Of a DNA stretch of 64,000 bases, positions 34,934 through 54,007 are shown piece by piece (the stretch's first letter is position 1; each line of letters starts with the position of its first letter). The position numbers were made by a program, and so were the translations under genes. The stretch is from an uncultured Acidobacteriota bacterium (GTDB lineage Bacteria > Acidobacteriota > Vicinamibacteria > Vicinamibacterales > 2-12-FULL-66-21). The notes under the pieces were generated by a model. It was not told the origin of the DNA and searched no databases. It saw only the letters and a list, made by a program, of their open reading frames with translations. The stretch lies in NCBI GenBank assembly GCA_963730995.1, contig CAVSUB010000013.1, positions 2,173,167 through 2,237,166 on the forward strand, read 5' to 3'.

Positions 34934-34949
34934 TCATGCGGGCGCGCCG

Positions 34950-35705: not shown

Positions 35706-35801
35706 TCTATCCTCTGAGCAATCGTGGCAACGTCTCCGGTTCCGCGCGACCGTCGTCCGATGTCGAATGATGGTAATCTCCGGGCTGTTCGAGCTCTCGA
35801 G

Positions 35802-36945
35802 ATGAGGCGCTTTCTATTCGTGCTCGTGCTGGCCTTGCTGCCGTGTGGCTGCGGTAGCAGCGATCGGCCGAGCCTTGCTCCCGGGTCGGCTGCGCCTGAC
35901 TTCACGCTGCCCGGCGTGGACGGCAAGAGTCATTCTCTCGGTGACTTTGCGAGCAGCCGGGTCCTGGCCGTCGTTTTCACCTGCAACACCTGCCCCGTGT
36001 CGCAGTTGTACGAATCGCGCATCAAGAAGCTCGACGAAGACTATCGGGGCAAGGGCGTGACCGTCGTCGCCATCAATCCAAACAAGCCGGCGGCGATGCA
36101 GCTCGCGGACCTCGGACATACGGACGTCGGTGAGTCGCTCGACGACATGAAGCTCAGGGCGGCAGATCGAAGCATCGGGTACCCGTATTTGTCCGACGGC
36201 GACACGCAGTCCGTGACGCAGGCGTTCGGCGTTGTGGCCATGCCCCACGTCTTCGTGTTCGATCAGGCGCGGCGGCTGCAGTACCGAGGGGCGAATCGAC
36301 GACAACACGCGTGAGGACAAAGTCACGGCGCGTGATGCGCGCAACGCTATCGATGCGCTCCTCGCGGGTCGAGCGGTTCAGACAGCTCACACGAGCGTGA
36401 GCGGCTGCCCGGTCAAAGGGGGGCGCTCGTCCGCCGGCCCGGATCCAGATCTCGCCAGGGTCGAAAGCGCGCCAGTAACGGTCGACATGATCGGGCCCGA
36501 GGATCTTGGAAAGCTCCGGCGCAACGGGACCGGAAAGCTGCTCATGGTCAACTTCTGGGCGACCTGGTGCGCTCCCTGCGCGAGCGAGTTTCCGGATCTC
36601 GAGACGACCTACCGCATGTACAGGTCGCGCAATCTGGAGTTCGTTTCCGTTTCGGTGAACGACCCGGCTGAACGTCCTGCGGTCCTGGCCTTCCTGCAGT
36701 CGCATCACGCCTCTCACCCGAATCGGCTGTTCGCGACCTCCGACGTGTATGGACTTCAGGCCGCGTTCGACCCGAAAATGCCGGCTCCTGTGCCCTTCAC
36801 CCTGCTGCTCGCGCCCAACGGGGACGTCGTTTACCAGGAGCTGGGCGAGTTGACGATCTCCAAGCTGCGGCGCGCGATTCTGGCCAACCTTCCCGAGGAC
36901 GAGAAGTACCCCGGCCAGCAGGCCTACTGGTCCAACCCTGACTGA
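35802..36945 (+). pseudogene. Lipoprotein with two thioredoxin-like (AhpC/TSA-like plus TlpA-like WCxxC) domains, frameshifted at a G-run near 36287..36291; paralog of the next gene.
   Basis: Two plus-strand ORFs (35724..36314 and 36232..36945) together are collinear with the 428-aa downstream gene. The product has a lipoprotein-like signal (MRRFLFVLVLALLPCGCGS), a CPVS motif in domain 1 and WATWCAPC in domain 2. The frame breaks where QYRGRIDDNTRED is expected. The observed cgagggggcgaatcgac has one extra G compared with the paralog (ccagggccggatcgac). Confidence 0.7.
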
Positions 36946-36955
36946 GCGAGGCACC

Positions 36956-38242
36956 ATGATTCGATCGACACAGCAACACGCGACTGGCCGCATGCCGCAA
37001 CGGACCAAACGCGCTCTCGAACGGGCGCTCGTCGCCGCACTCGTCGTCGTGGCGGGTCCACTCATCGGGATGCGGGTCAATCTTCATGGGCAGGCGCCGC
37101 CCGCCCAGGGCGCGGGCAAGGGAATCCAGGCGAACCTGGACCATCCGGTATTGCCCATCGGTTCTCCGCTGCCCGATTTCACGCTGCCTGGTGTGGACGG
37201 GAAGACGCACAAGGCGAGCGAATACGGCGGAACCAAGGTGCTGGCGCTCGTCTTCGAGAGCAACCACTGCCCTGTCTCGCAGCTCTACGAGGGCAGGATC
37301 GACAAGCTCTATGAGGACTACAGGCAGAAGGGTGTCACGCTGGTCGCGATCAATCCGAACAATCCAAAGACCGTCCGTCTCGACGAGCTCGGCTACACGG
37401 ACGTGACCGACTCGCTGCCCGAGATGAAGCTTCGTGCGCGCTTCCGCGGAATCACATGGCCGTATCTCTACGACGGCGACACCCAGGCCATCTCCGAAAA
37501 GTTCGGCGCCGTCGCAACGCCGCACATCTTCATCTTCGACAAAGAGCGCAAGCTTCGATACCAGGGCCGGATCGACGACAACCAGCGCGAAGACCTCGTG
37601 AAGACGCACGACGCGCGCAACGCCATCGACGCGCTGCTCGCTGACAAGCCGGTTCCCGTGGCCGAGACGACAGCGTTCGGATGCACGACGAAGTGGCTGT
37701 CGAAGGCGTCAGGAGTGGAACAGGAGTGGGCGCGCATTCAGAAGGAACCGGTCACCGTGGACCCGGTCGGCGCCGAGGATCTGAAGAAACTGAGAACGAA
37801 TCCCACCGACAAGGTCATGCTGGTGCACTTCTGGGCCACCGAGTGTGCGGCCTGCACCAGCGAGTTCCTGGATCTGGAAACAACGTATCGCATGTATCGC
37901 AAGCGGGCGTTCGACCTGATCACGATCAGCACGAACGGCCCGTCCGAGAGTGCCGCCGTGCTGGATTTCCTGAAAAAAGAATACGCGTCGAGCCCCAACA
38001 AGCAATTCGCGACGGCAGACCGCGCAGGGCTGCAGGCGGCCTGGGGTGTCAAGTGGAGTCCCGCGGCGCCCTTGACCATGGTGATCGCGCCTGGCGGCAG
38101 GGTGCTCTACCAGAAGGAAGGCAAGTTCGACATTCTGGAAGTGCGTCGCGTCGTGCTCGCGAACATGCCCGATACGTCCGGTTACATCGGATCGAAAGCG
38201 TATTGGATGAACGCCGTGGAGGAGATGGCCCGCAAGAAGTGA
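36956..38242 (+). CDS. Two-domain thioredoxin-like protein (AhpC/TSA-like N-domain with CPVS; TlpA/ResA-like C-domain with CxxC).
   Basis: The 428-aa product has an N-terminal signal/transmembrane segment. Domain 1 reads VLALVFESNHCPVSQ and domain 2 reads MLVHFWATECAACTSEF. The starts are 10 nt from the preceding paralog. Confidence 0.85.
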   Translation: MIRSTQQHATGRMPQRTKRALERALVAALVVVAGPLIGMRVNLHGQAPPAQGAGKGIQANLDHPVLPIGSPLPDFTLPGVDGKTHKASEYGGTKVLALVFESNHCPVSQLYEGRIDKLYEDYRQKGVTLVAINPNNPKTVRLDELGYTDVTDSLPEMKLRARFRGITWPYLYDGDTQAISEKFGAVATPHIFIFDKERKLRYQGRIDDNQREDLVKTHDARNAIDALLADKPVPVAETTAFGCTTKWLSKASGVEQEWARIQKEPVTVDPVGAEDLKKLRTNPTDKVMLVHFWATECAACTSEFLDLETTYRMYRKRAFDLITISTNGPSESAAVLDFLKKEYASSPNKQFATADRAGLQAAWGVKWSPAAPLTMVIAPGGRVLYQKEGKFDILEVRRVVLANMPDTSGYIGSKAYWMNAVEEMARKK

Positions 38243-38249
38243 CCGCTCG

Positions 38250-39536
38250 ATGACGACGGTACTCGAGGATCTGGCATGGCGCGGCCTGTATGCCGACTGC
38301 ACTGACGCCGCCGCGCTGACCGAGCGGCTGGCGTCCGGACCTGTCACGCTCTACGCGGGCTTCGATCCGACAGCCGCCTCGCTGCACGTCGGCAACCTGG
38401 TGCCGCTCCTCGCGCTCCGGCGTTTTCAACTCGACGGACACAGCCCGATCGCGCTTGCCGGCGGCGCCACGGGCATGATCGGCGATCCTTCCGGCAAGGC
38501 CGACGAGCGCAGCCTCCTCACGCCGGAACAACTCGCGCACAACCTCGAGCGCATCACGCCCCAGCTCGCGAAGTTCCTCGACTTCGAGGCGGCGGGGAAT
38601 CCCGCCCGTCTCGTCAACAACTACGACTGGACCGAGCCAGTCTCTATCCTCGAATTCCTTCGAGACATCGGCAAGCACGTGTCGGTCAACTCGATGATCG
38701 GCAAGGAGTCTGTTCGCTCGCGCATGGAGGATCGCACGAGCGGCATCAGCTTCGCCGAGTTCAGCTACATGCTGCTCCAGGGATTCGACTTCTACCATCT
38801 GCGGAAGACGTACGGCTGCGAGCTCCAGGTCGGCGCGACCGATCAGTGGGGCAACATCACGGTGGGCACCGAGCTCTGCCGCAAGAAGCTGGGCGTTCCA
38901 GTGTGGGGGCTGGTCTTCCCCCTGATGACGAAAGCCGACGGGTCCAAGTACGGCAAGACGGCGACCGGAACGGTATGGCTCGATCCTGCTCGCACCTCGC
39001 CGTACCGGTTCTATCAGTTCTTCGTGAACACGGACGATGCGGACGTGATCGCGCTCCTCAAGATCCTGACGTTCCGATCGAAGGAGGAGATCGCCGAGCT
39101 TGAAGCGGCGGTACGCGACAAGCCGGAGGCACGAATCGCGCAGAAGGCGCTCGCGCACGACATGACGGCGCTGGTCCATGGCGAAGGCGCGCTCGACGGC
39201 GCGACGCGTGCCAGCGAGATTCTGTTCGGCGGCACGCTCGATGGCGTGTCCGAATCGGTTTTCGCTGACGTCGTCGGAGAGGTCCCGACGGCGGCGATCG
39301 GGAAAGAGCGATTGGACGGATCCGGCGTCCTTCCAACCGATCTCTTCGTGCACGCCGGGCTGTGCGCGTCGAAGGGGCAGGCGAGGCGGGATCTCGAGGG
39401 GGGCGGCCTGTACTTGAACAACGTGCGCTGCACCGATGTCGCACGCCCGGTCACGTCCGCGGATACGCTGTTCGGAAAATATCTGCTCTTGCGGAAAGGA
39501 CGCCGCGCTTATGCGCTCGTCACTGCAGAAGCGTAA
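38250..39536 (+). CDS. tyrS: Tyrosine--tRNA ligase.
   Basis: The class I HIGH-region variant (AGFDPTAASLHVGNLVPL), the KMSKS-like region (KYGKTATG) and the C-terminal S4-like domain are present. The overall TyrS architecture fits the 428-aa length. Confidence 0.95.
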   Translation: MTTVLEDLAWRGLYADCTDAAALTERLASGPVTLYAGFDPTAASLHVGNLVPLLALRRFQLDGHSPIALAGGATGMIGDPSGKADERSLLTPEQLAHNLERITPQLAKFLDFEAAGNPARLVNNYDWTEPVSILEFLRDIGKHVSVNSMIGKESVRSRMEDRTSGISFAEFSYMLLQGFDFYHLRKTYGCELQVGATDQWGNITVGTELCRKKLGVPVWGLVFPLMTKADGSKYGKTATGTVWLDPARTSPYRFYQFFVNTDDADVIALLKILTFRSKEEIAELEAAVRDKPEARIAQKALAHDMTALVHGEGALDGATRASEILFGGTLDGVSESVFADVVGEVPTAAIGKERLDGSGVLPTDLFVHAGLCASKGQARRDLEGGGLYLNNVRCTDVARPVTSADTLFGKYLLLRKGRRAYALVTAEA

Positions 39537-41343
39537 CGCCCTGCGCCGCTACAAACCGCAAGGGCTGACCTCGCGGTCGATCGTCCTGCTGTGGATTGCC
39601 GCCTTCGGACTGGTGGGCTTCGACGGCCAGACGACAGCCGACCCCCAGGCGCGCGCCAGTTTTCACGCCACGATCGATCCCGTCGTCGACGCACTCTGGT
39701 CGGCGTTCGACGAGCGCGCAGCGCTCGACCACGTCAGGTTCATCAGCCAGTACTGGCGCCTCCCGGGGAACACGGGTTACAACGCGTCCCTCGACCGTAT
39801 CCGCGATCGGCTCGTCAGCGCGGGCTTCGCGGCAAATGCCTCGGCCACAGCGCCGCGCGTTGTTGTAGAGGAGTACGCGAATTCCGGGCATGCGTGGGAA
39901 TACACGACAGGGACCGTCGCGATCGTTCGCCCTGGCGCGCAGGACGAAATCGTGCTCTCCCGGGACAAAGACCGCCTGGCGCTCTGCATCAATTCCTTTT
40001 CCACAGCGCCCGAAGGCGTGGTCGCCCGCCTCGTGGACGTCGGCGCCGGACGAGACGCCGACTACCTTGGCAAGGATCTCAAAGGCGCTGTCGCGCTCGG
40101 CGACGCCGAGACGGCCGCGTTGTGGCGCAAAGCGGTCGTCGAAGACGGTGCGATTGGTGTCATCTCAACGGCGCTCCCGTCCTATCTCGACGCCGATCCG
40201 CCAGGCGCCACAGTCCGCACGCCTCGAGATCAGTGGGACATCCTGCAGTGGAGCAGCATCCCGTACGACGAGAGCAGAAAGGGCTTCGGCTTCAAGGCCA
40301 CGCCGCGCGCGGCCGCGCGGCTCCGGCGCGCGTTGACGTCCAACGGCGGCGCCGCGGCACCGTCGGTCCGCGTCACCGTTGCGAGCACCTCCTCCACCGC
40401 GCCCGTACGCTCGCTCATCGCGGAGATTCCCGGCCGGATCGCGCCCGACGAGCGGATCGTGATCGCTGCGCACGTGCAGGAGCCGGGCGCAAACGACAAC
40501 GCGAGCGGCGTCGCCACCGGAGCCGAGATGGCTGTCGCCCTGGCGAAGTCGATTCGAGAAGGACGCGTCCCCCCGCCGTCACGCACCCTCACGTTCCTCT
40601 TCATCACCGAGATCGCCGGGAGCCGGCAATGGCTGCAGAGGGTGGGATCAGACCCACCCGGAACAGGCGCAGCCAGGCATGTCAGGTACATGTTTTCGAT
40701 GGACATGACCGGCGAGGACGTGACGAAGACGGGCGGCACGTTTCTTATAGAGCGTTTCCCGGATCCGGGGGCCGTTTGGGATCGGCCATGGGATCCGCAC
40801 ACCCAGTGGGGACGCGGCAGCGTCAAGGCGGAGAACCTCAAAGGCGACCTGATCACCGACGCGCACCTGGCGGTCTGCCAACGCGTCGCGAGGAAGACTG
40901 GCTGGGACGTGAGAACGAACCCCTACGAAGGCGGTAGCGATCACACCGTGTTTGGCGCCGCCGGGATTCCCTCGGTTCTCGACTGGCACTTCACCGACCG
41001 CTACTACCACACCAACTTCGACACGCCGGACAAGACGAGCCCTGCCGAGATGAGGAACGTCGGAGTGGCCGTGGCCGCTACGGCCTGGCTCTTCGCGTCG
41101 GCCACGGAATCCGTGGCGCTCGACGTGGCGCGCGTAGTCGCCTCCGCGGGGGAAGCGCGGCTCGCCAGAGAGCAGACCGACGGAGCCACGCTCCCATCGG
41201 CTGACCTCGTCATACCGGCCTGGCGAAAGTGGTACGCCGAAGCCGTCAGAAGCGCCGACCGGCTGGTCGTCGGAGCACCTTCGGCGGACTTTGCCGGCCG
41301 CCTGCGAACGCTCTCCGCTCCGTTCGATTCCCCGTCGCGCTGA
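39511..41343 (+). CDS. M28-family peptidase (aminopeptidase with a PA domain), secreted/membrane-anchored.
   Basis: An N-terminal transmembrane/signal segment (IVLLWIAAFGLVGF) is followed by M28 zinc-ligand context (IAAHVQEPGANDNASGVA...FSMDMTG...GGSDHTVF). The start is uncertain, and the ATG at 39511 overlaps the tyrS 3' end. Confidence 0.75.
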   Translation: MRSSLQKRNALRRYKPQGLTSRSIVLLWIAAFGLVGFDGQTTADPQARASFHATIDPVVDALWSAFDERAALDHVRFISQYWRLPGNTGYNASLDRIRDRLVSAGFAANASATAPRVVVEEYANSGHAWEYTTGTVAIVRPGAQDEIVLSRDKDRLALCINSFSTAPEGVVARLVDVGAGRDADYLGKDLKGAVALGDAETAALWRKAVVEDGAIGVISTALPSYLDADPPGATVRTPRDQWDILQWSSIPYDESRKGFGFKATPRAAARLRRALTSNGGAAAPSVRVTVASTSSTAPVRSLIAEIPGRIAPDERIVIAAHVQEPGANDNASGVATGAEMAVALAKSIREGRVPPPSRTLTFLFITEIAGSRQWLQRVGSDPPGTGAARHVRYMFSMDMTGEDVTKTGGTFLIERFPDPGAVWDRPWDPHTQWGRGSVKAENLKGDLITDAHLAVCQRVARKTGWDVRTNPYEGGSDHTVFGAAGIPSVLDWHFTDRYYHTNFDTPDKTSPAEMRNVGVAVAATAWLFASATESVALDVARVVASAGEARLAREQTDGATLPSADLVIPAWRKWYAEAVRSADRLVVGAPSADFAGRLRTLSAPFDSPSR

Positions 41344-41487
41344 AGGACACACCTTCTCCGTGCCCTTCGCCGCGCGTCACGACCGCTGCGCCGCGGCGTC
41401 ACAGCGTCGACGACCGCAGGAGCGCGGACTTTGTTTTGGTCCAGCTTTGGCCTACGATGAGGTGCTTCCTTGCCAGCGGGGACCACG

Positions 41488-42615
41488 ATGATGCGGCATT
41501 CCATCGTTCGGCAATCCGTTGCGCTCGCCCTGGCGTGCGCAGGCGCGGCGGTCATGCCAGACGACCGTGCGATCGGTCAGGAAGGTTTCCGGTTTCACTC
41601 GAGCATCGAGCTCGTCAACGTCACGGCGACCGTTACCGACAATTCCGGACACTTCGTGCCCGGGCTGAAGCAGACCGACTTCCTCGTGTTCGAGGACGAT
41701 CAACCGGTTGAGGTCACACAGTTCAGCTCCGAGCGCGTTGCGGTCAGCCTCGGGATCGTGCTGGACACCAGCGGCAGCATGGACGGGCAGAAGATCAATG
41801 CCGCGCGGGTGGCGCTCGAGCGGCTCCTCCTCGATCTGCTCGGCGACGACGACGAAGTGTTCCTGTATCGGTTCGACAACTCACCCCATCTTGTCCAGGG
41901 CTGGACGAGCGATCGGAACCTCATTCGAGACGAGCTCCGCCGCATTCCGACGGACGGCGCGACAGCGCTCTACGATGCCGTGGCCCAGGCGCTTCCTCTA
42001 CTTGAGTCAGGCCGTCATCGCAAGAAAGCGCTCCTCGTCATCTCCGACGGCAACGACACCAGCAGCAAGATCGACCTGCCGCGGCTGAAGCAGCTGATTC
42101 GCGAATCAGAGGCGCTCGTCTACGCGATTGGAATCGACGCCCAGGCTACCAGCGCGACGACCGGAAATGGCGCGGTTCGCGATAACCGGATGTTCGAGCA
42201 GCGAAGACGGCCTTTCCCGATTCCGCCTCCGTTTCCCGGTCCGAGAGTCCCTCCGCGCACCCCGCCGGTGCCCGGAACGCCGCCCGGCACCGCACCTCCG
42301 CCGCGCCAGCCGCGGACGCCACCGTCCGACGAACCGGGCAGCAACAGCGCCGGCGCGCGTCGAGGGGATGAGCCGGTCAACACCAATGCGCTGCACGACG
42401 TGACGGACGACAGCGGCGGTCGGACCGAGGTCCTGCGGGATGCGAAGGATCTCGGACCCGCGACCGCACGTATCGCAGACGAGTTGAGCAAGCAGTACTA
42501 CCTGGGATATCCGAGCCGCGCGCGGCATGACGGCCAGTGGCACGCGATCAGAGTCGAGATCCGGGATCGGTCGTTCAATGTCAGGGCGAGGAAGGGGTAC
42601 CGGGCGCCCTCCTAG
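41488..42615 (+). CDS. VWA-domain protein (Acidobacterial VWFA-related family), secreted.
   Basis: A signal peptide is followed by a VWA MIDAS-type motif (LDTSGSMDG). A Pro-rich linker (PFPIPPPFPGPRVPPRTPPVPGTPPGTAPPP) and a C-terminal conserved tail (KQYYLGYPS...RARKGYRAP) complete the protein. Confidence 0.85.
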   Translation: MMRHSIVRQSVALALACAGAAVMPDDRAIGQEGFRFHSSIELVNVTATVTDNSGHFVPGLKQTDFLVFEDDQPVEVTQFSSERVAVSLGIVLDTSGSMDGQKINAARVALERLLLDLLGDDDEVFLYRFDNSPHLVQGWTSDRNLIRDELRRIPTDGATALYDAVAQALPLLESGRHRKKALLVISDGNDTSSKIDLPRLKQLIRESEALVYAIGIDAQATSATTGNGAVRDNRMFEQRRRPFPIPPPFPGPRVPPRTPPVPGTPPGTAPPPRQPRTPPSDEPGSNSAGARRGDEPVNTNALHDVTDDSGGRTEVLRDAKDLGPATARIADELSKQYYLGYPSRARHDGQWHAIRVEIRDRSFNVRARKGYRAPS

Positions 42616-42738
42616 GGTTCTAGGTTCTAGAGGTTCTAGAGGTTCTAAGGTTCTGGGTTCTAGGGTTCCGGCGCCAGTGCCCTGAACCTAGAACCAGGAA
42701 CCCTTAGAACCTTTAGAACCCTGGAACCCTGGAACCTA
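42613..42738 (+). repeat. Tandem-octamer inverted-repeat element, (GGTTCTAG)n - centre - (CTAGAACC)n, that fills the whole convergent intergenic gap.
   Basis: About 7 GGTTCTAG-like units (42616..42669) precede a cGGCGCCagtgccct centre, which is followed by about 7 complementary TAGAACC/GGAACC units (42682..42736). The arms pair with G.U wobbles and bulges into a 50-55-bp interrupted stem. The element spans exactly from the VWA stop to the mgtE stop. Confidence 0.8.
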
Positions 42739-44166
42739 CAAGAGGGTCCCATGCAGGACCACCAGCGCGACGGTGAAGTAGATCACCAATCCCGTCACGT
42801 CGACCAGCGTCGCGACGAACGGTGCCGACGACGCTGCGGGATCGAATCCCAGTCGGCGCATCAGCAGCGGCAGGAGTGAGCCGGTCAGCGTTCCCCACAA
42901 CACCACACCGACGAGAGACAGGGCCACGGTCCAGGCAATCAGGAGCCAGTGCTGGCCATAGGTGTCCGCGAACGCCGACCACAGCGTGATTCGGAGAAAA
43001 CCAATCGTTCCGAGGATCAACCCAAGGGCGACACCGGCCAGGATCTCGCGGCGCATCACACGCCACCAGTCGCGGAGACCGACCTCGCCCAGCGCCAGGG
43101 CGCGGATGACGAGCGTCGCCGCCTGGGATCCCGAGTTGCCGCCGCTCGAGATGATGAGTGGAACGAACAGCGCGAGGACGACAGCCTTCGTGATCTCCTG
43201 CTCGAAGGATGCCATCGCCGTTGCGGTCAGCATCTCGCCGAGGAAGAGCGCGGTCAGCCATCCGGCGCGCTTCTGAATCATCCGTCCGAAGCCGATGTCC
43301 ATGTAAGGCTCATCCAGTGCTTCCGATCCACCGATTCGCTGGATCTCTCGCGTCGCGGTCGCTTCCGCCACGTCCAGCACGTCGTCGATGGTGACGATGC
43401 CGATGAGCATTCCGGTTGTGTCGGTCACGGGCAGAGCGCTGCGGTCGTACTCGCGGAACACGGCGACGGCGGCCGTCTGATCGTCCGTCGCTTTCAGCGA
43501 CACGAAGCGCCTGTCCATGAGATCCGCGACCTTCCTGTCGACGGGGGCCAGCAGGAACTCCCGAATGCGGATGTCGTCGATCAGCAGACCCTGCTCGTCG
43601 ATCACGTAGATGACGTTCAGGGTCTCGCTGTCCTGCCCGTGAGCGCGAACGTAGTCGAGCACTTCGCGGACGGTCCAGCCTTCGCGAATCGCCACGTAGT
43701 GCGGCGTCATCAGCCGCCCGATCGAGCGCTCGGGATACCCGAGCAGCGTGACCGCGACCGATCGCTCCTTTGGCGTGAGGAGGCCCAGAAGCTGGCGTGT
43801 GGCCGTCGCCGGCAGCTCCTCGAGGAACATCGTGCGGTCGTCCGGCGCCATGTCGTTCAGCAGCGCAGCCACGTCCTCCTGGGCCATCGCCTTGAGCAGC
43901 GTGTCTTTCGCGTCGTGTTCGAGGTATTCGAAGACGGTGGCCGCATCTTTCCTGGGCATCACGCGGAACACGACGACCTGGTCTTCGATGCTCATCTCCG
44001 TCAGCAGGGCGGCGAGCTCTCCTGCATGACGGTTGCGGATCATGTCGCGGAGCCGCGCGTAGTCCCGCGCACGCAGCACCGCGGCCAGTTCGTCGGCGAG
44101 CCTGGCGATCTGGCGAACGACGCCCAGCGCCTCCTCGCGTTGCGGTCCGTTGAGTTGCTGTTCCAT
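42736..44166 (-). CDS. mgtE: Magnesium transporter MgtE (core gene, 476 aa if started at the internal ATG at 44166).
   Basis: The MgtE N domain, CBS pair (IGRLMTPHYVAIREGWTVREVLDYV...; VADLMDRRFVSLKATDD...) and MgtE transmembrane domain (ISSGGNSGSQAA...) are present. The ORF stays open upstream for a further 402 codons; see the next feature. Confidence 0.7.
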   Translation of the reverse strand: MEQQLNGPQREEALGVVRQIARLADELAAVLRARDYARLRDMIRNRHAGELAALLTEMSIEDQVVVFRVMPRKDAATVFEYLEHDAKDTLLKAMAQEDVAALLNDMAPDDRTMFLEELPATATRQLLGLLTPKERSVAVTLLGYPERSIGRLMTPHYVAIREGWTVREVLDYVRAHGQDSETLNVIYVIDEQGLLIDDIRIREFLLAPVDRKVADLMDRRFVSLKATDDQTAAVAVFREYDRSALPVTDTTGMLIGIVTIDDVLDVAEATATREIQRIGGSEALDEPYMDIGFGRMIQKRAGWLTALFLGEMLTATAMASFEQEITKAVVLALFVPLIISSGGNSGSQAATLVIRALALGEVGLRDWWRVMRREILAGVALGLILGTIGFLRITLWSAFADTYGQHWLLIAWTVALSLVGVVLWGTLTGSLLPLLMRRLGFDPAASSAPFVATLVDVTGLVIYFTVALVVLHGTLL

Positions 44167-46267
44167 TTGTCTGAGCGCGGCCCTCACGACGTCGTGGTGG
44201 TGCACGTGCGGGCCAATGGCTTTCGTGACGTCGAGCCAGAGGCGGTGAATCTGATCCAGATCGGCGGCGGTGAGCGATGGAGGATGCGCGCCAAGGTGAT
44301 ACGAGTCGGTGCGCCCGCTGCGATGGTAGACGACCAGCCGGACGTCGAGCGGCTCGGGCTTGGCGGCATTCTCCCAAGCCTCGCCGAGGAGCCGGGCCTG
44401 CTCGTCGGCCGACAGAGTCGCCGATTCCCCGACGTGCACGTCCGACGATCGAAGCCGCAGGATGGTCGAGACAATCGCGTCGAACACGTTGTGCGCGGGC
44501 ACGATCAGCAGGCGCACCGAACGCCCCTGGCGCTCCGCGACCGCAATCACTTCAGACAGCAGCCGCTGTTCCGCAAGGGTCGGCGCGGCGTCGGTCGCCG
44601 CGTCTTCCGCCACGTCCAGCCCGACGAGCCGAACCGTCATGACCACGACGTCGCGATCGCGCGCCGCCTGCAGGGCCGAATGCAGGTGCGTCAGTGCGCG
44701 CGGGTTGCGCACTGGGACCAGGACGTTGCCGACGCGCGCGTCGATGTGATCGAGCGACAGCTCGGCCGCCGGAAGGAGATCGAGCGTCGCCGGGCTGTCG
44801 GCGACCACGCGGGACTCGACATCACGCGCGCCGAACGTGAAAAGGACCGTCAACCCACCGATCAGCGCGACAGTAGCAATGGAAGGGCCGTCGCCCATCG
44901 CGATCATGGCAAGAGCGCTCACGCCAACGATCAGACCGGAGCCGATGACGCCCAGCGGGATCTCGCGGCGGCCGACCTGCAGGTTCGCACCAGCCTTGAA
45001 CGGCTTCGGCTCCGTGCGCTTGCGACGCAATCTGAGGAGCGTCGCCGCTTTGAGCGCGACGCTGGCCGCCACGGCAATGGCATAGGCACGCCCGAGCCAT
45101 TCCACTCGGCCGCTCCCGGCGAGGATGATCAGGATCGTCGCCGCAGCCGCGACGTCGATCGCGCGCGCGGGCGTGCCGAATCGCGAGTGCAGCGCCGCGA
45201 GACCCTCCGGCAGAATGCCCTGGGTCGAAAGCCCCTCGAGCATGTGCTCGGCGTCGCCCAGCGCGGCGTGGGCGGCCGGCACGAGCATCAGGACTGCCGC
45301 GATGACGAGGCCGATTGCCAGGACGTCGCGCAGCCATCGCGGCGCGGCCAGATGCTGCGCAAGACCAGCCATGCGGCGCGGTGATCCAGGCGGCTTGCTC
45401 TGTCGCCGGTATCAGAAGAGCAAACAGGAACGTGGTGAGTGTTGTCACGAACAGCGCGAACACCAACGTCAGGAGAGCGGTCCGGCGCAGTGCCTGCACG
45501 CGAGGCGGCTCCAGCTCGTGCGCCGCCTGGGCGAGCACTTCCCCGCCACCAATCGCGGGAAGGACGAGACAGAGGCCCGTCAGGCAGGTCAGCCCCGCGT
45601 CGAGGTACCAACGCAGCGTCGGGACGGGCGCCGGCAGCGAGACGAGCGGGGCGAGAGGCGGGGCCGTCCGCACCGCGCTGACCACACTCCACAGAGCCGT
45701 CAGTACGAGCACGCCTACGCCAATCCAGACGCCGCGGGCGATCGTGTCCGACCGGAGGTCCAATCCGACGCGCGCCCGAATCCACAGCAGCCCCACCATC
45801 ACTACCGCGAGCATCGTCGCGAAGTCTTCGGGCCTGAGGAGACCTGTGAGCCGGAGCCCGGCTATGGCGGTCACGGCGACACCTGACGCATAGTGCCCCG
45901 CGACGACGACCGCGAGCGCGGCGAGAACGAACCGCTCGGTCAGCACCGTCGCGGCGGCCGTGCCGGCCAGCGAGGGGCCGAAGGCGTACTCGACGCGCCC
46001 GACGAACCCGCCGGGGATGAACACGGCCCAGCTCTCGATATCGATGGCGCGGACGAATGCCGCCAGAACGACTGCGGCCAGCACGAACCATCCAGCGCGC
46101 GGGCCGAGAACGGCAGTACTGACGCCGGCGATGAAGAACGCCGCGGCGCCAAGCTGCGCGAGCGCCAGCGCAGCCGCCTTCCGCACGGACATGAACGAGA
46201 GCAGCGCCGTCGAAGAGAGGACGACGCGCACACGGCGCCGGGGATCGATCAGAGGAACGAGCGGCAT
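44167..46267 (-). pseudogene. APC-family amino-acid permease with a C-terminal Usp-like domain, +1-frameshifted near 45340..45400 and reading through in frame into mgtE.
   Basis: ORF 44822..46567 (from the ATG at 46267) encodes about 8 transmembrane helices, including the APC signature ...ESWAVFIPGGFVGRVEYAFG. The last transmembrane helices and a Usp-like domain (NVLVPVRNPRALTHLHSALQAARDRDVVVMTV...) continue in the +1 frame, ORF 42736..45372. No stop codon separates this region from mgtE. Confidence 0.5.
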
Positions 46268-46421
46268 GAGTCCGAATGGCCGTGGCACCACGCGCGGCAG
46301 ATCGCGCCAGTCGCGAAACCGGGAGGAGTCACCCTGCAACGATATCGCCACTCGGGGTTCGAACGATAGAGCGACTTGAAGGGAGCGCGGTGAAAAAGGG
46401 CTGCGCCTGCGATCGGCGCGC

Positions 46422-47546
46422 TCAGCGGACCGTGCACGCGGCGACTTCACGAGCGATCGGGACGAGCGAGAGGCCGAAGCCTCCGCCAAAGCCACGCTGA
46501 CCGCCAAAGCCGCCGCGCGTGGATCGAATGAAGACGCTCGACCCGTCGACAGGAAACCCATTGGCATTCGCGCAGAACCGCTCCCAGAGGCCGTCCTGGC
46601 GGAGGTACTGTTCGACGTTCGAGACGTAGAACGCCGAGACGATCATCCCCCGCTGCCTGAGGTACGAGGCCACCGCGCGCAGCGCTTTTGTTCCGCCGAA
46701 GTTTCCGACCACGGGTACGACCATGTTCCGCGACTCGAGATCCTTCACGAACGCGAACGACGCCTCGGAAGCGAGGTAGCTGCGATTGCGGCCCTCGCCA
46801 TCTGTCGACGTCATCAGGTCGGCGTAGGTCGGAAACCCACCGGGTCCTCCGCGCCCGCCAAAACCGCCGTTCGTCAGCTCGTAGTGGATGTCGGGGCCCT
46901 GCTTGAACCACGCGTCGTATACGAACGCGAGACCGCGTTTGTCGTCCGGCGACAGCGCAAAGCCGTGCTTCGTGGTCAGGTGAGCCCAGACGGCCGCGAG
47001 ATTGCGTTCGTACAGTGCCGGACTCGGGGCGGCCTTCTCGTACGCCGAAAAGATCGCGGTCGCGGAAGGCGACGGTGCCAGATCGGCCGGCCGTTTCCGC
47101 GAGAACAGCCGCGACACGAAATCGGCACGATCGGCGGACAGCTCGAACAGCGCCTTGTACAGGAGGTGCAGGTCGAAATTGCCGCGTCGGACGTCGACAA
47201 TGAAGGCGAGCGAGGGCCGTACGGTGGCGATGTAGCTGAAGTTCTGCTCGGAACCGACTCCGACGTACGCGCGACCCGAGACGGCGGTCGCTTCCAGCTG
47301 AGGAAGGATCGATTGGAAGCCCGCCTCGTTCGAGACCAGGTTCTCGGAGTGGAATGTGCCATCCGGCTCCGAGAAGCCGGACGCCAGCTTCCAGAACTCC
47401 TGATCGGTCAGTCGGGACGCCGTTACAGGAGCCGTCCCCCGCACGCGGGCAGGCGCGACAAGAAGAAGCGCGGCCAGCAGGAGGCCGGCGATCGCAGCAC
47501 CTGCCGCGATTCGGCGGTTACTCCTGGATGAGGCGTGTCCGCCCAT
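46422..47546 (-). CDS. Secreted hypothetical protein.
   Basis: The roughly 375-aa product has a signal peptide (RRIAAGAAIAGLLLAALLLVAPARV) and a protein-like composition. Gly-rich GGFGG repeats occur near both ends. The alternative start is at 47576. Confidence 0.55.
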   Translation of the reverse strand: MGGHASSRSNRRIAAGAAIAGLLLAALLLVAPARVRGTAPVTASRLTDQEFWKLASGFSEPDGTFHSENLVSNEAGFQSILPQLEATAVSGRAYVGVGSEQNFSYIATVRPSLAFIVDVRRGNFDLHLLYKALFELSADRADFVSRLFSRKRPADLAPSPSATAIFSAYEKAAPSPALYERNLAAVWAHLTTKHGFALSPDDKRGLAFVYDAWFKQGPDIHYELTNGGFGGRGGPGGFPTYADLMTSTDGEGRNRSYLASEASFAFVKDLESRNMVVPVVGNFGGTKALRAVASYLRQRGMIVSAFYVSNVEQYLRQDGLWERFCANANGFPVDGSSVFIRSTRGGFGGQRGFGGGFGLSLVPIAREVAACTVR

Positions 47547-47696
47547 CGGGTCGATCCTCGTGATCATCGTGCACATATTGTCCTCGCGACGGCCATCGTC
47601 GTCGAGGCCCCACGCATTCGGCCGGTTCAAGGTCGGCCGACGCAAAGCTCCAGGGCGCTGATCCTCCAAGGTGCGGCGGTGTAGACTTGCCCGCTA

Positions 47697-48848
47697 GTGA
47701 AAATGACAGAGGGCGTCCAAATGAAGACATCGACCATGACCCGCGCCTGGTTTCGAGCGGTGCTCGTCGCCGCCGTCGTCGCTGCCCTGCCGAGTGTACG
47801 AGCTCAGGAACGGCCACCGCTCCGCCTTGCGATTGCGGGCCTCGTGCACGGACACGTCAGCGGCTTCCTTCGCGCCGCGCAAGGGCGAACGGACGTGCAG
47901 ATAGTGGGTGTCTTCGAGCCCGACGCGACGCTCCTGCGAAGCTATGCGGAACGCTACAAAATCCCCGATACGGCGCTCTTCACCGATCTCGGGTCGATGC
48001 TCGACACGATCAAGCCCGAGGCCGTCGCGTCGTTCACGAACACCCGCGACCATCCCTCGATCGTCGAGGCGTCGGCCAGGCGCCGCATCCACGTCATGAT
48101 GGAAAAGCCGCTTGCGGTCAACAACGCGGACGCGCAGCGGATCCGCCAGGCCGCGGCCGCCGGCGGCATTCAGGTCCTTGTCAACTACGAAACGACCTGG
48201 TACCCGAGTCATGGCGCGATGTGGACGCTCTTGAAGGAGCAAAAAGCCGGCGGCGAGATTCGCAAGATGGTGGCGATGGACGGCCACAGCGGTCCGAAGG
48301 CGATCAACGTACAGCCGGAATTCTTCGACTGGCTCTCGGATCCGGTCAGGAACGGCGCAGGCGCGTTGTTCGACTTCGGCTGCTACGGCGCCAACCTGAT
48401 GACGTGGATGATGGACAATCAGCGTCCGCTCGCCGTCACCGCGATCACCCAGCAGCTTCAGCCAGACGTGTATCCGCGCGTGGATGACGAAGCCACGATC
48501 CTTCTCGAGTATCCGAAGGCGCAAGGCATCATCCAGGCGTCCTGGAACTGGCCGTTCAATCGCAAGGACTTCGAGGTCTACGGCGATCACGGCCAGGCAA
48601 TCGCGACGGGCGGCACGAGCCTTCGTGTCACGCTGCCGAAGCAGCCCGAGCAGACTGTGACGCCCGAGGCCCGTCCGCCGGACGAGCGCGATTCCATCTC
48701 GCACCTGATCGCGGTCGTGCGCGGCACGCGCAAGCCGAATGCGCTCTCGTCGCTCGAGAACAACCTGATCGCGACCGAGATCCTCGATGCAGCGAGAGAG
48801 TCGGCGCGCAGTCACGCGCGGGTGACGCTGCCGCCGGCGCGACGGTAA
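47697..48848 (+). CDS. Gfo/Idh/MocA-family NAD(P)-dependent oxidoreductase, secreted.
   Basis: A signal peptide is followed by the Rossmann N-terminus (LRLAIAGLVHGHVSGFL) and the EKP motif (MMEKPLAVN). Confidence 0.9.
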   Translation: MKMTEGVQMKTSTMTRAWFRAVLVAAVVAALPSVRAQERPPLRLAIAGLVHGHVSGFLRAAQGRTDVQIVGVFEPDATLLRSYAERYKIPDTALFTDLGSMLDTIKPEAVASFTNTRDHPSIVEASARRRIHVMMEKPLAVNNADAQRIRQAAAAGGIQVLVNYETTWYPSHGAMWTLLKEQKAGGEIRKMVAMDGHSGPKAINVQPEFFDWLSDPVRNGAGALFDFGCYGANLMTWMMDNQRPLAVTAITQQLQPDVYPRVDDEATILLEYPKAQGIIQASWNWPFNRKDFEVYGDHGQAIATGGTSLRVTLPKQPEQTVTPEARPPDERDSISHLIAVVRGTRKPNALSSLENNLIATEILDAARESARSHARVTLPPARR

Positions 48849-48931
48849 CAAGCAACCCTTTGCCTTCTACTCTCCGTCTAAGCGCACATGCCGAACGTGT
48901 GCGCAGTCACCGTCGCCGGCCGGAGGCCTCG

Positions 48932-51466
48932 ATGAGGGACCTCCAGATGGCCGTCCGTCAGCTCGCCAAGAGTCGAGGGTTCACCATCGTCGCGGTGCTT
49001 TCGCTGGCGATCGGCATCGGCGCGAACACGGCGATCTTCAGCCTGGTCAACGACTTTCTCCTGCGCTCCCTGCCGGTCAGGAGCCCGGACGAGCTCGTCC
49101 TGCTGCGGAACATCGACGGCGCGGGCGGCAGAATGTCGCGGAGTGGTGAGAACAACGGGTCGATCGATCCGGTCACTGGACGGGCGGCGAGCACGTCTTT
49201 TTCGCTCCTGAGTTTCGAGCGGATGCGCGCGCAGCGCTCGGCACTGTCGGACCTCTTTGCGTTTGCGCCCTTCTCGAGGGTCAACATTCTCGTGGACGGC
49301 CAGCCGGAAATCACCGGAACTGCGCAAATGGTCTCCGGCGGGTACCACGGGGGCCTCGGCGTGTCGGCCGCGCTCGGCCGCACGATTTCGTCCGAGGACG
49401 ATCGGACCTCCGCACCGCCGGTCGCTGTCATTTCATATCGCTACTGGGAACGCCGCTTCGAACGCCGTCCGGACGTCCTGGGCAAGATACTCGCCATCAA
49501 CCGTGTTCCGACGACGATCGTCGGCGTGACGGCGAAGGGTTTCGACGGCGCGATGCAAGCGGGCGAATCGCCTGACGTCTCGGTACCTCTCGCCCACTAT
49601 CTGCTGTTTCAACCGGACCGGACCGGACGAGCGCAGCCTTCCTACTGGTGGATTCGGGTAATGGGCCGGCTCGCGCCCGGCGCGACACCGGCGCAGGCAG
49701 CCGCATCGCTCGAGCCGCATTTCCAGCAGGCGGCGAGCGAGGGCTGGGTCGCCGGCAGGCCGGCAGGGACTCCGTCTGACGAACGGATGCCCAACCCGCC
49801 TACGCTCGTCGCGGACCCAGGTGCCCGCGGCGAGAACGATACGCGCCGTCAGTTCTCCGCCTCGTTGCGGACGCTGATGGGCCTCGTCAGCCTGTTATTG
49901 GCGGCTGCGTGCGCGAATGTCGCGAATCTGCTGCTCGCACGCGGAGCGGCGCGCCGTCGTGAAATCGCGCTTCGCCTGGCCCTGGGAGCGGGTCGCGGGC
50001 GTGTCGTTCGACAACTGCTCGCCGAGTCGCTCCTGCTCGCTGTCGCTGGCGCTGCACTCGGAATGGCCTTCGCCTGGTGGGGGCGCGATCTGCTGCTGGC
50101 ACTGCGGCCGTTCGGTAACACCACCGTCGTCCTCGACCTCCCACTCGACGGGCGCGTCCTGGCCTTCACCATCGCCGTGACGTTCGGAACGGCCCTTCTC
50201 TTCGGGCTCTCTCCCGCGCTCCGCGCCACGAGCGTCGATCTCAATTCGGAGTTCCAGAGCGGTGGGCGTACTCTTGGCAGCGGCCGGCGTTCGCGTCTCA
50301 GCCGCGGACTCATGGTCGTCCAGATTGCGCTCTCCCTGGTGCTCCTCGTCAGCACCGGTCTCTTCGTGCGCACGTTGAACAACCTGCAGCACGTGGATGC
50401 CGGGTTCAACCGTCACGGCCTGGTGCTCTTCCGCATCGACGCGTCGTCTGCCGGCTACACCCGCGATCGGTTCACGACGCTGCAGGCGCGCCTGCAGGAG
50501 AGCGTCGCAAGGCTGCCCGGGGTGCGCGCGGCCACGTTCTCGAGTACGGCGCTGCTATCGCGTGTTCGCCAGAACAAGCGGATATCGGTTCCAGGCCACA
50601 CACTTCCGTCCGCACAGCTGCCGATCGTCAACACCAACGGGCTCGCGTCGAACTTCTTCCGGGCGATGGAGCTGCCGATGGTCCTCGGGCGGGACTTCAC
50701 GGAACAGGACAACGGGACGGCGCCGAAGGTGGCGGTCGTCAATCAGGCGTTCGTGCGGATATATTTCGACGGTGAGAATCCCGTCGGGAAGCCCATCGGC
50801 ATCCCAGGCTACGCTGACCGCGTCGAGGTCATCGGAGTTGCCGGGGATGCCAAGTACACGGAGCTGCGCGGCGACGCGCCTCCCACCGTCTATCTGCCGT
50901 CGCTGCAGCAGGTGGACGGAGATGCGAGCTTCGCCGTCCGGCTCGGCGGATCGAGCCGGACTGAAGCTTCTTTCTTCTCCGCTATTCGGTCGGCGGTGCG
51001 CGAGGTGGATCCGGCGCTACCCGTGCTGAACCTGCGGACCCAGGACGAACAGATCGATCGATTGAATGGACAGGAGCTGCTGTTCGCGAAGCTCTCCGGC
51101 CTGTTCGGCGTTCTCGCTCTCCTGCTCGCATGTGTCGGGCTCTACGGGCTGATGTCACAAACGGTCTTCCGTCGAACGGGCGAGATCGGACTGCGCATGG
51201 CGCTCGGCGCGCTGCCGGGACACGTCCTGCGGATGATCCTGCGGGAATCCCTCCTGCTCGTCGGCCTCGGCATCCTGACCGGCATCGCCGCAGCGTTCAG
51301 CGCCGGACGGATCGTGGCGTCGATGCTGTTCGACCTGTCACCGGCCGACCCGCTCACCTATGGTGCCGTCGCGATCGGCCTCACGCTCATCGCCCTGCTG
51401 GCGTCGGCAGCGCCGGCGCGTCGGGCGAGCCGCATCGATCCAATCGCCGCGCTGAAGATTGAATAG
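48932..51466 (+). CDS. ADOP-family ABC-transporter permease (duplicated FtsX/MacB-like permease).
   Basis: The 844-aa product has two MacB-periplasmic-plus-FtsX halves, each ending ...LAACVGLYGLMSQTV.RRTGEIGLRMALGA.... The C-terminus reads AARRASRIDPIAALKIE. A GGAGG RBS lies 6 nt before the ATG. Confidence 0.9.
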   Translation: MRDLQMAVRQLAKSRGFTIVAVLSLAIGIGANTAIFSLVNDFLLRSLPVRSPDELVLLRNIDGAGGRMSRSGENNGSIDPVTGRAASTSFSLLSFERMRAQRSALSDLFAFAPFSRVNILVDGQPEITGTAQMVSGGYHGGLGVSAALGRTISSEDDRTSAPPVAVISYRYWERRFERRPDVLGKILAINRVPTTIVGVTAKGFDGAMQAGESPDVSVPLAHYLLFQPDRTGRAQPSYWWIRVMGRLAPGATPAQAAASLEPHFQQAASEGWVAGRPAGTPSDERMPNPPTLVADPGARGENDTRRQFSASLRTLMGLVSLLLAAACANVANLLLARGAARRREIALRLALGAGRGRVVRQLLAESLLLAVAGAALGMAFAWWGRDLLLALRPFGNTTVVLDLPLDGRVLAFTIAVTFGTALLFGLSPALRATSVDLNSEFQSGGRTLGSGRRSRLSRGLMVVQIALSLVLLVSTGLFVRTLNNLQHVDAGFNRHGLVLFRIDASSAGYTRDRFTTLQARLQESVARLPGVRAATFSSTALLSRVRQNKRISVPGHTLPSAQLPIVNTNGLASNFFRAMELPMVLGRDFTEQDNGTAPKVAVVNQAFVRIYFDGENPVGKPIGIPGYADRVEVIGVAGDAKYTELRGDAPPTVYLPSLQQVDGDASFAVRLGGSSRTEASFFSAIRSAVREVDPALPVLNLRTQDEQIDRLNGQELLFAKLSGLFGVLALLLACVGLYGLMSQTVFRRTGEIGLRMALGALPGHVLRMILRESLLLVGLGILTGIAAAFSAGRIVASMLFDLSPADPLTYGAVAIGLTLIALLASAAPARRASRIDPIAALKIE

Positions 51467-51477
51467 GGCTCATCCTC

Positions 51478-53875
51478 ATGGCCAATCTCAAATTCGCACT
51501 TCGACAGCTCATCAAGTCGCCTGGATTCGCCACTGTCGCGCTGCTCACCCTCGCTCTCGGCATCGGCGCGTGCACGGCGATGTTCAGCATCGTCGATGCG
51601 GTGCTGCTGCGGCCCTTGCCGTTCCGGGATCCTGGTCGCCTGGTGTGGATCGAAAACGAAGGCACCAGCGGGATGTCGGCACGAACGACCCGCGCTGACA
51701 CGTTCAAGGCGTGGCGTGAAGAGAACACGAGTTTCGAAACCCTGGCCGGGTACTTCGCCTTTTTCGATTTCGGCCGCCGGCAAACGCTGACCGGCTCGGG
51801 CGATCCGGAGCGGCTCCGCGACGTCGGCGTGTCCGACAACTTCCTCGACGTGCTCGGCGTGAGGCTCGCGCTAGGGCGAAACTTCACCGCGGAGGAGTGT
51901 CTTTTCAAGGCTCCTCCGGTGGCGATTCTGAGCCACTCGCTCTGGCGCCGCCGGTTTGCCAGCGACCCCGGAATCGTCGGCCGCACGCTCACTTCGAACA
52001 ACGCGCCTCTCACCATCGTCGGTGTGCTGCCGGCGGACTTCGACTTCGACGCCATCTTCTCGCCGGGGACCGAGATCGACCTGATCACGCCGTTCCCGAT
52101 CGCACCGGAGACCGCACGATGGGGCAACACGCTCTTCGCGATCGGCCGCCTGAAGCCGAACGCGACGCCTGAAAGCGCGCAGGCGGATCTCCGTCTCATC
52201 AGCCAACGATTCAAGCGGACGATCAACTATGGCGGAACGCTCGGTGCGCGCGTCAGCCGCCTCGACGATGCGTTGCGAGGGAGCTTCCGGCAGGCGTTCT
52301 ACGTACTGGCGGGTGCGGTGGCCTGCATCCTGGCAATCGCCTGCGTGAACCTGTCGAACCTGCTGCTCGCCCGAATCAACGTCCGCCGGCAGGAGTTCGC
52401 CGTGCGGGTCGCCCTCGGGGCACGCCGACGTCACTTGATCGAGCAGACGCTGGCCGAGAGCTTCCTGCTCGCCGCAGCTGGCTCGCTCATTGGCATTCCG
52501 CTGGCGATCTGGGCGACGCGCGCGCTGGCCGGCCTCCAGACGTTCGGCGTGCCGCTCCTTCAGAATGCCGCCGTCGATCCGATCGCCCTTGCGGTCACCG
52601 TCGGGCTCACCGGTACTGGCCGGTGCCGCCTGCGGCGTGCTGCCAGCGTGGCATCTGTCGCGCGGCGATCATGCCCAGCAGACGGCCACACATCAGCGAA
52701 CGGCCGGTCGCTCCTCGACTTCCGCGCGAAGCGTTTTGGTGGTCGTCGAAGTGGCACTCGCCTGCATACTGCTCGTGGGCGCCGGTCTCCTGTTCAGGAG
52801 CTTCCGATCGCTGCTCCAGGTCAATCTCGGATTCCAGCCACAGCATGCGATGTCGTGGCGCGTGGACTCGCCACGGAGCTTCGGCAGCCGCGCCGAGGCA
52901 AATGAATATCTCGACGGCGTCGTCCGGACCGTTGCCGCCCTGCCGGGAGTCGAGGCGGTGGGACTGAGCGATGTACTGCCGCTCGGCCGAAATCGGACGT
53001 GGGGTATCCGGGCGAAAGGCGTGGAGTACCCGCCAGGGCAGGGCCCGTCGGTCTTCCCGCGCATGGTCGATCAGCACTATCTGCAGGCCATGCAGATCCC
53101 GCTGCGTGCGGGCCGGTTCTTCGACGATCGCGACACCGCGACGAGCGAGAAGACCGTCATCATCAACGAGCACCTCGCGCGCGAGCTCTGGCCCGATCGT
53201 GATGCCATCGGGCAGCAGATCACCCAGAACGGCGGCTCGACGGTCATCGGCGTCGTCGCCGACGTCCGCCATGGATCGCTCGAGAAGGCGGGCGGCAACG
53301 AGATGTATCTCCACTACCGGCAGAGCGGCGACTGGCAGGGAATGGAGATGGTGGTCCGCAGCGCGCGCAGCCCGGCATCCCTCGTCGCCGATGTGCGTTC
53401 GGCGCTCGCCACGTACGATCCGAGCCTGCCAACCGGGGAGTTCTATCCCCTCGAACAGCTCATCGACAATGCCGTCGGGGCGCGTCGCCTGACGACGCAA
53501 CTGCTCGGCTTTTTCTCGGCCCTCGCGCTGACGCTCGCCGCGATTGGTCTCTACGGCGTCATCGCGCAGTCGGTGGTCCAGCGAACGCAGGAGATTGGCA
53601 TCCGGATGGCGATTGGCGCGCAACGGCAAGACGTGCTGGGCATGATTCTCGCCAGCGGACTGCGGCTGGTTTCGATTGGCGTCGCACTTGGGCTGGTCGG
53701 CGCCTTTGCGCTGACACGCGTGTTGCAAACGCTGCTGTTCGGAATCACCGCGCACGATCCGATTTCGTTTGCGGGGAACGCTTTGCTGCTCATCTCCGTG
53801 GCAACCGCGGCCTGCCTGTTCCCCGCGCTGCGGGCTACGAGGGTCAATCCCATCATCGCCCTGCGGGCGGAGTAG
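51478..53875 (+). pseudogene. Second ADOP-family permease, broken by a single-base frameshift near 52614.
   Basis: ORFs 51478..52905 and 52490..53875 are collinear with the upstream paralog. The frame changes within ...AVTVGLTG|VLAGAACGVLPAW. Removing one base from ggtactgg restores a continuous protein of about 799 aa. Confidence 0.8.
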
Positions 53876-54007
53876 CAGATCTCGATCATCGCCGCCGCTG
53901 TCTGACACCCGCCGAGATGAATGACGCGGCGCGAGTGAGCACGGCGAGCGAGCCACGCGACCGGAGCGCGCCGGCGAAGCGGCGCGTGAGAGAGCGTGTG
54001 GGGGAGT

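Follow-up and report, generated by a model that had tools for sequence, protein, structure and literature searches.

Two described systems come closest to the locus reported here. KimA of Bacillus subtilis (6S3K, 8B70) is a K+/H+ symporter of the KUP family, in which a LeuT fold of 12 transmembrane (TM) helices is followed by a cytoplasmic alpha/beta domain. This domain was described as PPAT-like, and R337, Q581 and S582 are the ligand residues for c-di-AMP (PMC10284832). The K+ ligands are D36, Y43, T230 and Y377, T121 lies close to them, and protons are coupled through E233 (PMC6994465; PMC10284832). KimA is a homodimer, and the D36A/N and Y43A exchanges abolish uptake (PMC6994465). MgtE is among the main prokaryotic Mg2+ uptake channels and is known to be regulated by cytosolic Mg2+ (PMC8104411); a classification of MgtE proteins from genome mining, dated 2025, lists only the types N-CBS-TM, CBS-TM, TM, TM-TM and mini-N (10.1101/2025.05.26.656215). 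In this study, we analyzed a 64,000-nucleotide stretch of DNA from an uncultured bacterium of the Vicinamibacterales (contig CAVSUB010000013.1 of assembly GCA_963730995.1; the whole stretch is called the window), in which a KimA-like module and a complete MgtE follow each other. With a probability of roughly 0.8, the locus is one intact gene for a 1,176-residue inner-membrane protein that is conserved in Vicinamibacteria (Acidobacteriota) and joins a KimA-like half with an altered K+ site to MgtE.

In the window, the gene appears in two reading frames. The list of open reading frames (ORFs) contains an 878-codon ORF at 42736..45372 on the minus strand, in which a Pfam scan finds MgtE_N (residues 449-548), CBS (615-668) and MgtE (737-868) and nothing for the upstream module. 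The 402 codons ahead of the internal ATG at 44166 are free of stops and in the same frame as MgtE; by a rough estimate from base frequencies, the chance of such a run in DNA of ~67% GC is about 1e-4. The N-terminal part, including ESWAVFIPGGFVGRVEYAFG, sits in a different frame of the same strand, in a second ORF that is protein-like from ATG 46267 to about 45378. Deleting one base yields 1,176 codons and a stop, with no internal stop, and in AlphaFold2 (AF2) models the frame break falls between TM7 and TM8. A sequence-only reading of this DNA had already noted the complete 476-residue mgtE from ATG 44166 behind about 400 stop-free codons and the permease start in another frame from 46267, in agreement with the ORFs and with the Pfam and TIGR00400 matches. 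It had divided the permease helices into eight upstream and four to five downstream of the break; the models give about seven and five, a small difference. The features of the gene are:

42736..46267, minus strand: whole gene of the KimA-like/MgtE fusion, 3,532 nucleotides (nt), 99% identical to the intact 1,176-residue database protein P0001
45374..45374, minus strand: one-base insertion in codon 298 (G on the coding strand); the sole indel within the gene against the intact relative L002
44797..46186, minus strand: KimA-like (KUP/APC superfamily, LeuT-fold) membrane domain, residues 28-490, 12 predicted TM helices (AF2, Foldseek, profile)
44287..44730, minus strand: cytoplasmic alpha/beta domain, residues 513-660 (secondary structure of the model; Foldseek match to KimA)
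44122..44286, minus strand: His-rich two-helix hairpin, residues 661-715 (conservation; also in stand-alone relatives)
43711..44121, minus strand: MgtE N domain, residues 716-852 (PF03448, E=2.9e-23; alignment to 2yvx)
43312..43710, minus strand: CBS pair of MgtE, residues 853-985 (PF00571; alignment to 2yvx)
42739..43311, minus strand: five-helix pore of MgtE, residues 986-1176 (PF01769, E=4.7e-37; alignment to 2yvx, E=2.3e-83)
42736-42738, minus strand: stop codon, end of the fusion gene

Homologues were searched with the first 700 residues, the two frames being joined between ...AAWITAP and MAGLAQ.... Almost all of the top 120 matches are 1,150-1,180 residues long and 56-99% identical across the whole 700-residue query. 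More than 100 database proteins of 1,175-1,178 residues bear both halves, with MgtE_N, CBS and MgtE at their C-termini; many of the fusion homologues are named 'magnesium transporter' and come from Vicinamibacterales. P0001 (1,176 residues, 99% identical) reads ...WITAPMAGLAQ..., exactly as in the guessed join. In addition, one genome per GTDB species was scanned (alignment A4), which gave 124 loci, almost all from metagenome-assembled genomes (MAGs) of Vicinamibacterales or Vicinamibacteria, and 80 loci were fetched and examined. Residues 640-730 across the junction lie in a single frame in 80/80 loci, the whole protein is covered in 73 (the others end at contig edges), and the junction region ranks among the best conserved stretches of the protein. 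In none of the orthologues, whether among these 80 loci or among the more than 100 proteins, are the halves parted by a stop. From these sequence comparisons, the three-module fusion is real and old.

The sequence-only reading had left two options: an APC-Usp gene of about 700 residues with a frameshift and a lost stop next to a normal mgtE, or a genuine three-module fusion of about 1,170 residues. The latter is borne out by the homologues and by the single frame in all loci. Two adjacent genes merged by a lost or mis-assembled stop would fit the presence of a complete MgtE with its own ATG (44166) behind the upstream module. However, all 80 loci and the more than 100 proteins read through the junction and the junction residues are highly conserved, which leaves this explanation practically no chance. 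The lost stop is refuted because no orthologue has a stop at the junction; orthologues with a stop between the Usp domain and the MgtE N domain, which the sequence-only reading had named as the finding that would speak against a fusion, were absent from the 80 loci. What stands of that option is the frameshift, which is present in the window sequence as a local one-base insertion. In the alignment of orthologues proposed there, the APC-type region is intact in a single frame in L002, and the halves are never separated by a stop.

One Vicinamibacterales MAG, SMAG_U3748, carries two copies of the fusion gene (L015 and L027) on different contigs (DASWZV010000085 and DASWZV010000066); therefore, paralogues exist. 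The loci L046, L049, L053, L054 and L057 come from MAGs labelled Terriglobia, Gemmatimonadaceae, Betaproteobacteria or Solibacteraceae. These labels outside Vicinamibacteria may reflect errors of binning, or the fusion gene may on rare occasions have been transferred.

The N-terminal 700 residues of the window protein have no Pfam match even at E<=10 and no NCBIfam match, and PF13520 (AA_permease_2) is matched by only 2 of the 31 fusion proteins that were compared residue by residue (best E 3.7e-21). We assign the module to the APC superfamily by transitive homology and by fold. A search of 1.84 billion representatives returned stand-alone relatives of 670-777 residues from metagenomes, which are 26-32% identical over the entire length and match AA_permease_2 end to end (E 1e-26 to 1e-53). 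Those with recovered contigs have their own stop and no MgtE; one lies on a 57-kb contig with no mgtE nearby, and two others are on contigs too short to tell. The stand-alone proteins P0154, P0161, P0165, P0202, P0205, P0215 and P0243 share the architecture of the N-terminal 700 residues of the fusion, to which they are 24-29% identical, but they differ in their strong AA_permease_2 match, in the absence of MgtE and in having retained D, Y, D, T, S, S, E and Y at the positions compared with KimA.

A profile of fused and stand-alone sequences (A2) had KimA (6s3k, E=1.2e-13) as its sole strong match among all PDB sequences, followed by LAT2 (E~0.09). KimA was reached by profiles only: a phmmer search of the PDB with the stand-alone protein P0161 gave no match. 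The AF2 model of residues 1-715 has a pLDDT of 81 and its first helix at residues 28-44. A full-length model (pLDDT 64.9, with a poor MgtE half) was not used for inter-domain geometry. With the model of residues 1-715, the best Foldseek match is KimA (8b70_A, E=2.2e-13, 16% identity) over 666 aligned columns, so that the membrane and cytosolic domains are covered together. Cation-chloride cotransporters follow. NKCC1, NCC and KCC likewise consist of a LeuT-fold membrane domain and, C-terminal to it, a cytoplasmic domain, but they are eukaryotic, are 11-14% identical, have other ion sites and bear no fused channel. The membrane domain alone matches BasC, GkApcT, ApcT, AdiC and LAT2 (TMt 0.72-0.81, root-mean-square deviation 3.8-5.8 A; TMt 0.78-0.81 for BasC, ApcT and GkApcT). 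In the predicted model, the module has the LeuT-type 5+5 fold of the APC superfamily. Its closest solved relative is KimA, with a 12-TM LeuT fold and an alpha/beta cytoplasmic domain, and not a generic amino-acid permease. The label 'APC-family permease' given by the sequence-only reading is right at the level of the superfamily, whereas profile and Foldseek searches place the specific architecture with KimA.

In the predicted models, the alpha/beta domain consists of parallel strands alternating with helices and of a terminal beta-hairpin, and it co-aligns with the cytosolic domain of KimA, of which it is, by this modelled fold, the counterpart. The description of this domain as Usp-like holds only for the general alpha/beta fold class, and a Pfam scan gave no match of the window protein to PF00582 (Usp); the only Usp match was that of one stand-alone relative, with 19.4 bits against a cut-off of 24.

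The ion site of KimA was mapped onto the 31 fusion proteins by a HMMER alignment and, in TM1, by the shared motif D-x-x-[ST]-S-x-x-Y. The residues compare as follows:

KimA D36: D in most stand-alone relatives; Q38 in the fusions (29 Q and 2 E of 31)
KimA Y43: Y in most stand-alone relatives; F45 in the fusions
KimA D117: D in most stand-alone relatives; E111 in the fusions
KimA Y118: Y, F or M in most stand-alone relatives; R112 in the fusions (invariant)
KimA T121: T in most stand-alone relatives; L115 in the fusions
KimA S125: S in most stand-alone relatives; A119 in the fusions
KimA T230: S in most stand-alone relatives; G240 in the fusions
KimA E233: E in most stand-alone relatives; position 243 in the fusions (E in 15/31, D in 16/31)
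KimA Y377: Y in most stand-alone relatives; Y395 in the fusions

Thus aligned, and with TM1 set by the motif, the fused clade does not keep the K+-coordinating residues of KimA/KUP, D36, Y43, T121, S125 and T230 being replaced by Q, F, L, A and G, whereas the equivalents of Y377 and D117 (the latter as E) are kept, as is the proton-coupling residue E233, as E/D243. The replaced K+ ligands suggest a repurposed regulatory module or an altered substrate. Several K+ residues are also lost in the stand-alone proteins P0181 and P0230 (L085), which have the His-rich hairpin and no MgtE: D36 has become P or V, Y43 F, T121 M or I, and S125 R. The MgtE-fused clade is therefore not alone in having a remodelled ion site.

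For the motif register, we used what we take to be the sequences of Kup and of KimA residues 1-55. With this KimA N-terminus, the numbering of all eight named residues fits the published one (PMC6994465), and it matches the PDB alignment from residue 55. Another register was obtained with MAFFT --add, which pairs LSSDALSSVAY with LSSTALLSFMS and lays TM1 of KimA on the unstructured N-terminal tail, at the cost of a 15-residue gap. It was rejected because AA_permease_2 begins later (at residue 33 of P0154 and residue 5 of P0161), because the first helix of the model comprises residues 28-44, and because D-x-x-[ST]-S-x-x-Y is common to Kup, KimA and the stand-alone relatives.

The KimA-like module is joined to MgtE by a His-rich hairpin, HLGAHPP...IHRxWLD...GPHVHHHDVVRAAL (IHRLWLD in the window), which holds the internal ATG 44166 (M701). 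Of its 55 columns 18 are invariant, at a mean pairwise identity of 79%. The longer stand-alone relatives P0154, P0161, P0165, P0181 and P0230 carry the hairpin at their C-terminus, too, which indicates that MgtE was appended to a complete pre-existing protein. In KimA there is neither this hairpin nor MgtE.

The MgtE half is complete. Residues 701-1176 (476 residues from ATG 44166) score 362.9 bits on TIGR00400 mgtE, against an equivalog cut-off of 232.75, and match PF03448, PF00571 and PF01769, with N domain, tandem CBS and five-TM pore in order. They align with chain residues 26-471 of 473 of Thermus thermophilus MgtE (2yvx, E=2.3e-83). D1156, which is invariant in 31 family members, aligns with D455 of the tagged 2yvx chain and, with the offset of 23 that we take to apply, would be the equivalent of the pore residue D432. 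The C-terminal half of the fusion thereby resembles T. thermophilus MgtE (2YVX, 2ZY9) from end to end, D432 equivalent included, but is preceded by a ~715-residue extension with 12 more TM helices. By its sequence, the MgtE half is presumably a working Mg2+ channel, and nothing points otherwise.

Conservation is uneven along the protein. Mean pairwise identity rises from 55% in the KimA-like TM domain, which is the least conserved part, through 72% (alpha/beta domain) and 79% (hairpin) to 81-87% (MgtE). The topology of the fusion is consistent, the end of a KimA-type module and the start of MgtE both being cytoplasmic. MgtE, like KimA with its swapped domains, is a homodimer, and the fusion protein is therefore likely to be a dimer of 2 x 17 TM segments, with 34 TM helices in total.

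The frameshift in the window is caused by the insertion of a single G (minus strand) at 45374, which turns CCCATGG into CCGCATGG. The window has CACCGCGCCGCATGGCT where the intact relative L002 has CACCGCGCC-CATGGCT; in longer context, GCGCC-CATGG becomes GCGCCGCATGG. L002 is a JGI contig of 14.6 kb with a gene 98.7% identical to that of the window (98.2-98.5% in the remainder), which encodes an intact 1,176-residue protein without the extra base. The corrected coding sequence differs from that of L002 by 37 synonymous and 5 non-synonymous changes (pN/pS 0.05), and all five of the latter lie outside both MgtE and the 297 codons ahead of the shift; hence, there is no sign of pseudogene decay. 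The same CCCATGG to CCGCATGG change occurs a second time, at position 21454 of L001 (ENA ERZ25039567 contig_32782), a contig 98.2% identical to the window on which the fusion gene is called as 878 residues. There it splits a 2-hydroxyacid dehydrogenase (L001 21186..22122) into calls of 107 and 217 residues, while the window keeps CCCATGG at 33954 and has the dehydrogenase frame open as one (33248..34897, minus strand).

One-base indels between the window and L001 (window 32777..55360) lie at GTAC in 7 of 42 cases, against a background of 1.7%, an enrichment of about ten times. This clustering is the pattern expected of motif-specific base-calling errors, which are probably linked to methylation. 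Together with the repeated CCCATGG to CCGCATGG change, it suggests methylation of GTAC and of a motif containing CATG in these genomes, which would lead the basecaller astray. Frame breaks in the fusion gene are found in 15/36 Nanopore-only MFD MAGs, which were built with Flye and one round of Medaka (PMC12313526), and in 1/44 other assemblies (Fisher p=9e-6). Because sequence-specific indels often break the gene in Nanopore-only MAGs, an apparent pseudogene or split gene is not reliable there. A second frameshift of the window against L002, at 52612, is a one-base insertion beside GTAC that cuts a MacB/FtsX-type ABC permease gene; it encodes 798 residues in L002 and appears in the window as overlapping ORFs at 51478..52905 and 52490..53875 (plus strand). 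At 48618..48620, within a GFO_IDH_MocA oxidoreductase gene, comparison of the window with L002 shows a -1 indel and, at a distance of three bases, a +1 indel, the frame being restored immediately with one or two residues altered.

Most probably, therefore, the insertion at 45374 stems from long-read base-calling that errs systematically at a site containing CCATGG, and the gene would be intact in the organism. A real mutation of the lineage, yielding a very young pseudogene or expression in two pieces (~300 residues with TM1-7, and 878 residues with TM8-12 and MgtE), would explain why the same base is inserted in L001, an assembly that differs from the window by 1.8%, and an ATG at 45372 opens the 878-residue frame right at the shift. 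That shared base, which may mark a sub-lineage, and the fact that the artefact call draws on assembled contigs rather than reads tell against an error. However, the coding sequence has not decayed on either side of the shift, the identical sequence-specific insertion breaks another gene elsewhere, frame breaks are almost limited to Nanopore-only assemblies, and a LeuT fold interrupted between TM7 and TM8 would hardly be favored by selection; we thus consider a real mutation improbable. Programmed frameshifting was rejected because the orthologues are in frame. An internal start at ATG 44166 (M701), giving free MgtE besides the full-length protein, is more doubtful still. M701 is invariant in 31/31 fusion proteins and the product would be a full-size MgtE, but no Shine-Dalgarno-like sequence is suitably spaced (the closest GAGGG starts ~20 nt upstream), and stand-alone relatives carry the hydrophobic residues F or L at this helix position, so that the Met can be explained structurally.

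What the KimA-like half does is a matter of more tentative judgement. Since the cytoplasmic parts have been tightly conserved despite the loss of the K+ ligands, we favor, with some reserve, a half that no longer imports K+. Instead, it would be a built-in sensor, regulator or dimer scaffold governing how the N and CBS gating domains of MgtE move. Control would run through the rigidly conserved alpha/beta domain and the His-rich hairpin. It is tempting to speculate that a LeuT-fold transporter has been turned into a non-transporting sensor ('transceptor') that gates a Mg2+ channel, a possibility that we hold more loosely. The K+ site, remodelled around the invariant R112, might then reflect the state of the membrane, of protons or of cations, or the alpha/beta domain and hairpin might sense a bound nucleotide or metal, and the signal would pass to the gating N and CBS domains of MgtE within one polypeptide. 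Alternatively, the module may be an active secondary transporter, of K+ via altered ligands or of another cation or small solute, and the fusion would couple stoichiometry and regulation of two uptake systems, as in K+/Mg2+ homeostasis. This is a possible reading, though hardly a secure one: the proton-coupling acid and Y377 are kept, the central site is nearly invariant, the model gives the complete LeuT fold at high confidence, and K+ fluxes perturb Mg2+ homeostasis in B. subtilis (PMC8844918). On the other hand, the fused clade carries Q and F where the D36A/N and Y43A exchanges abolish transport by KimA (PMC6994465), T121, S125 and T230 have become L, A and G, and no part of the protein is less conserved than the membrane domain. 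Several points weigh against a regulatory half. The near invariance of Q38, F45, E111, R112, L115, G240 and Y395 would also suit a site for another substrate, and D or E occurs at the D36 position in fused members that are more distant. The D36 and Y43 mapping, the least secure part of the comparison, is a motif register, HMMER having left TM1 unaligned and MAFFT having picked another register. The proposed dimer would be plausible by analogy with the parent proteins, and the regulatory role is one that we infer.

The fusion has escaped attention in annotation, where it figures only as 'magnesium transporter', because its N-terminal 715 residues are invisible to Pfam and NCBIfam. Its sequences are already public under that name, and the architecture appears to be undescribed within the searchable literature: full-text searches returned no description of an MgtE fusion with an amino-acid permease, KimA or KUP, or of one in Vicinamibacter, in line with the impression of the sequence-only reading. 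A whole class of abundant soil bacteria has joined MgtE to a KUP/KimA-type module with a rewritten K+ site. This offers a natural system for studying the coupling between K+ and Mg2+ homeostasis, which has been observed at the level of physiology in B. subtilis (PMC8844918), and for asking whether a carrier fold can become a channel regulator. If the transceptor reading were true, it would represent a new mode of MgtE regulation and a natural covalent carrier-channel chimera.

In the 80 loci, the fusion gene has no operon partner or conserved neighbour. The upstream DUF7790 gene recurs in 1/80 loci, and the VWA protein encoded on the other side has weak matches (29-37% identity) in 7 loci, in varying positions and orientations. 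The spacer between the convergent fusion and VWA genes (42600..42745) is very rich in indels between the window and L001. It contains opposed arrays of 9-nt repeats, AGGTTCTAG about six times and GAACCCTnn about four times, which fold as one long hairpin (-79 kcal/mol, z=-6.7) that is probably, on this prediction, a bidirectional terminator.

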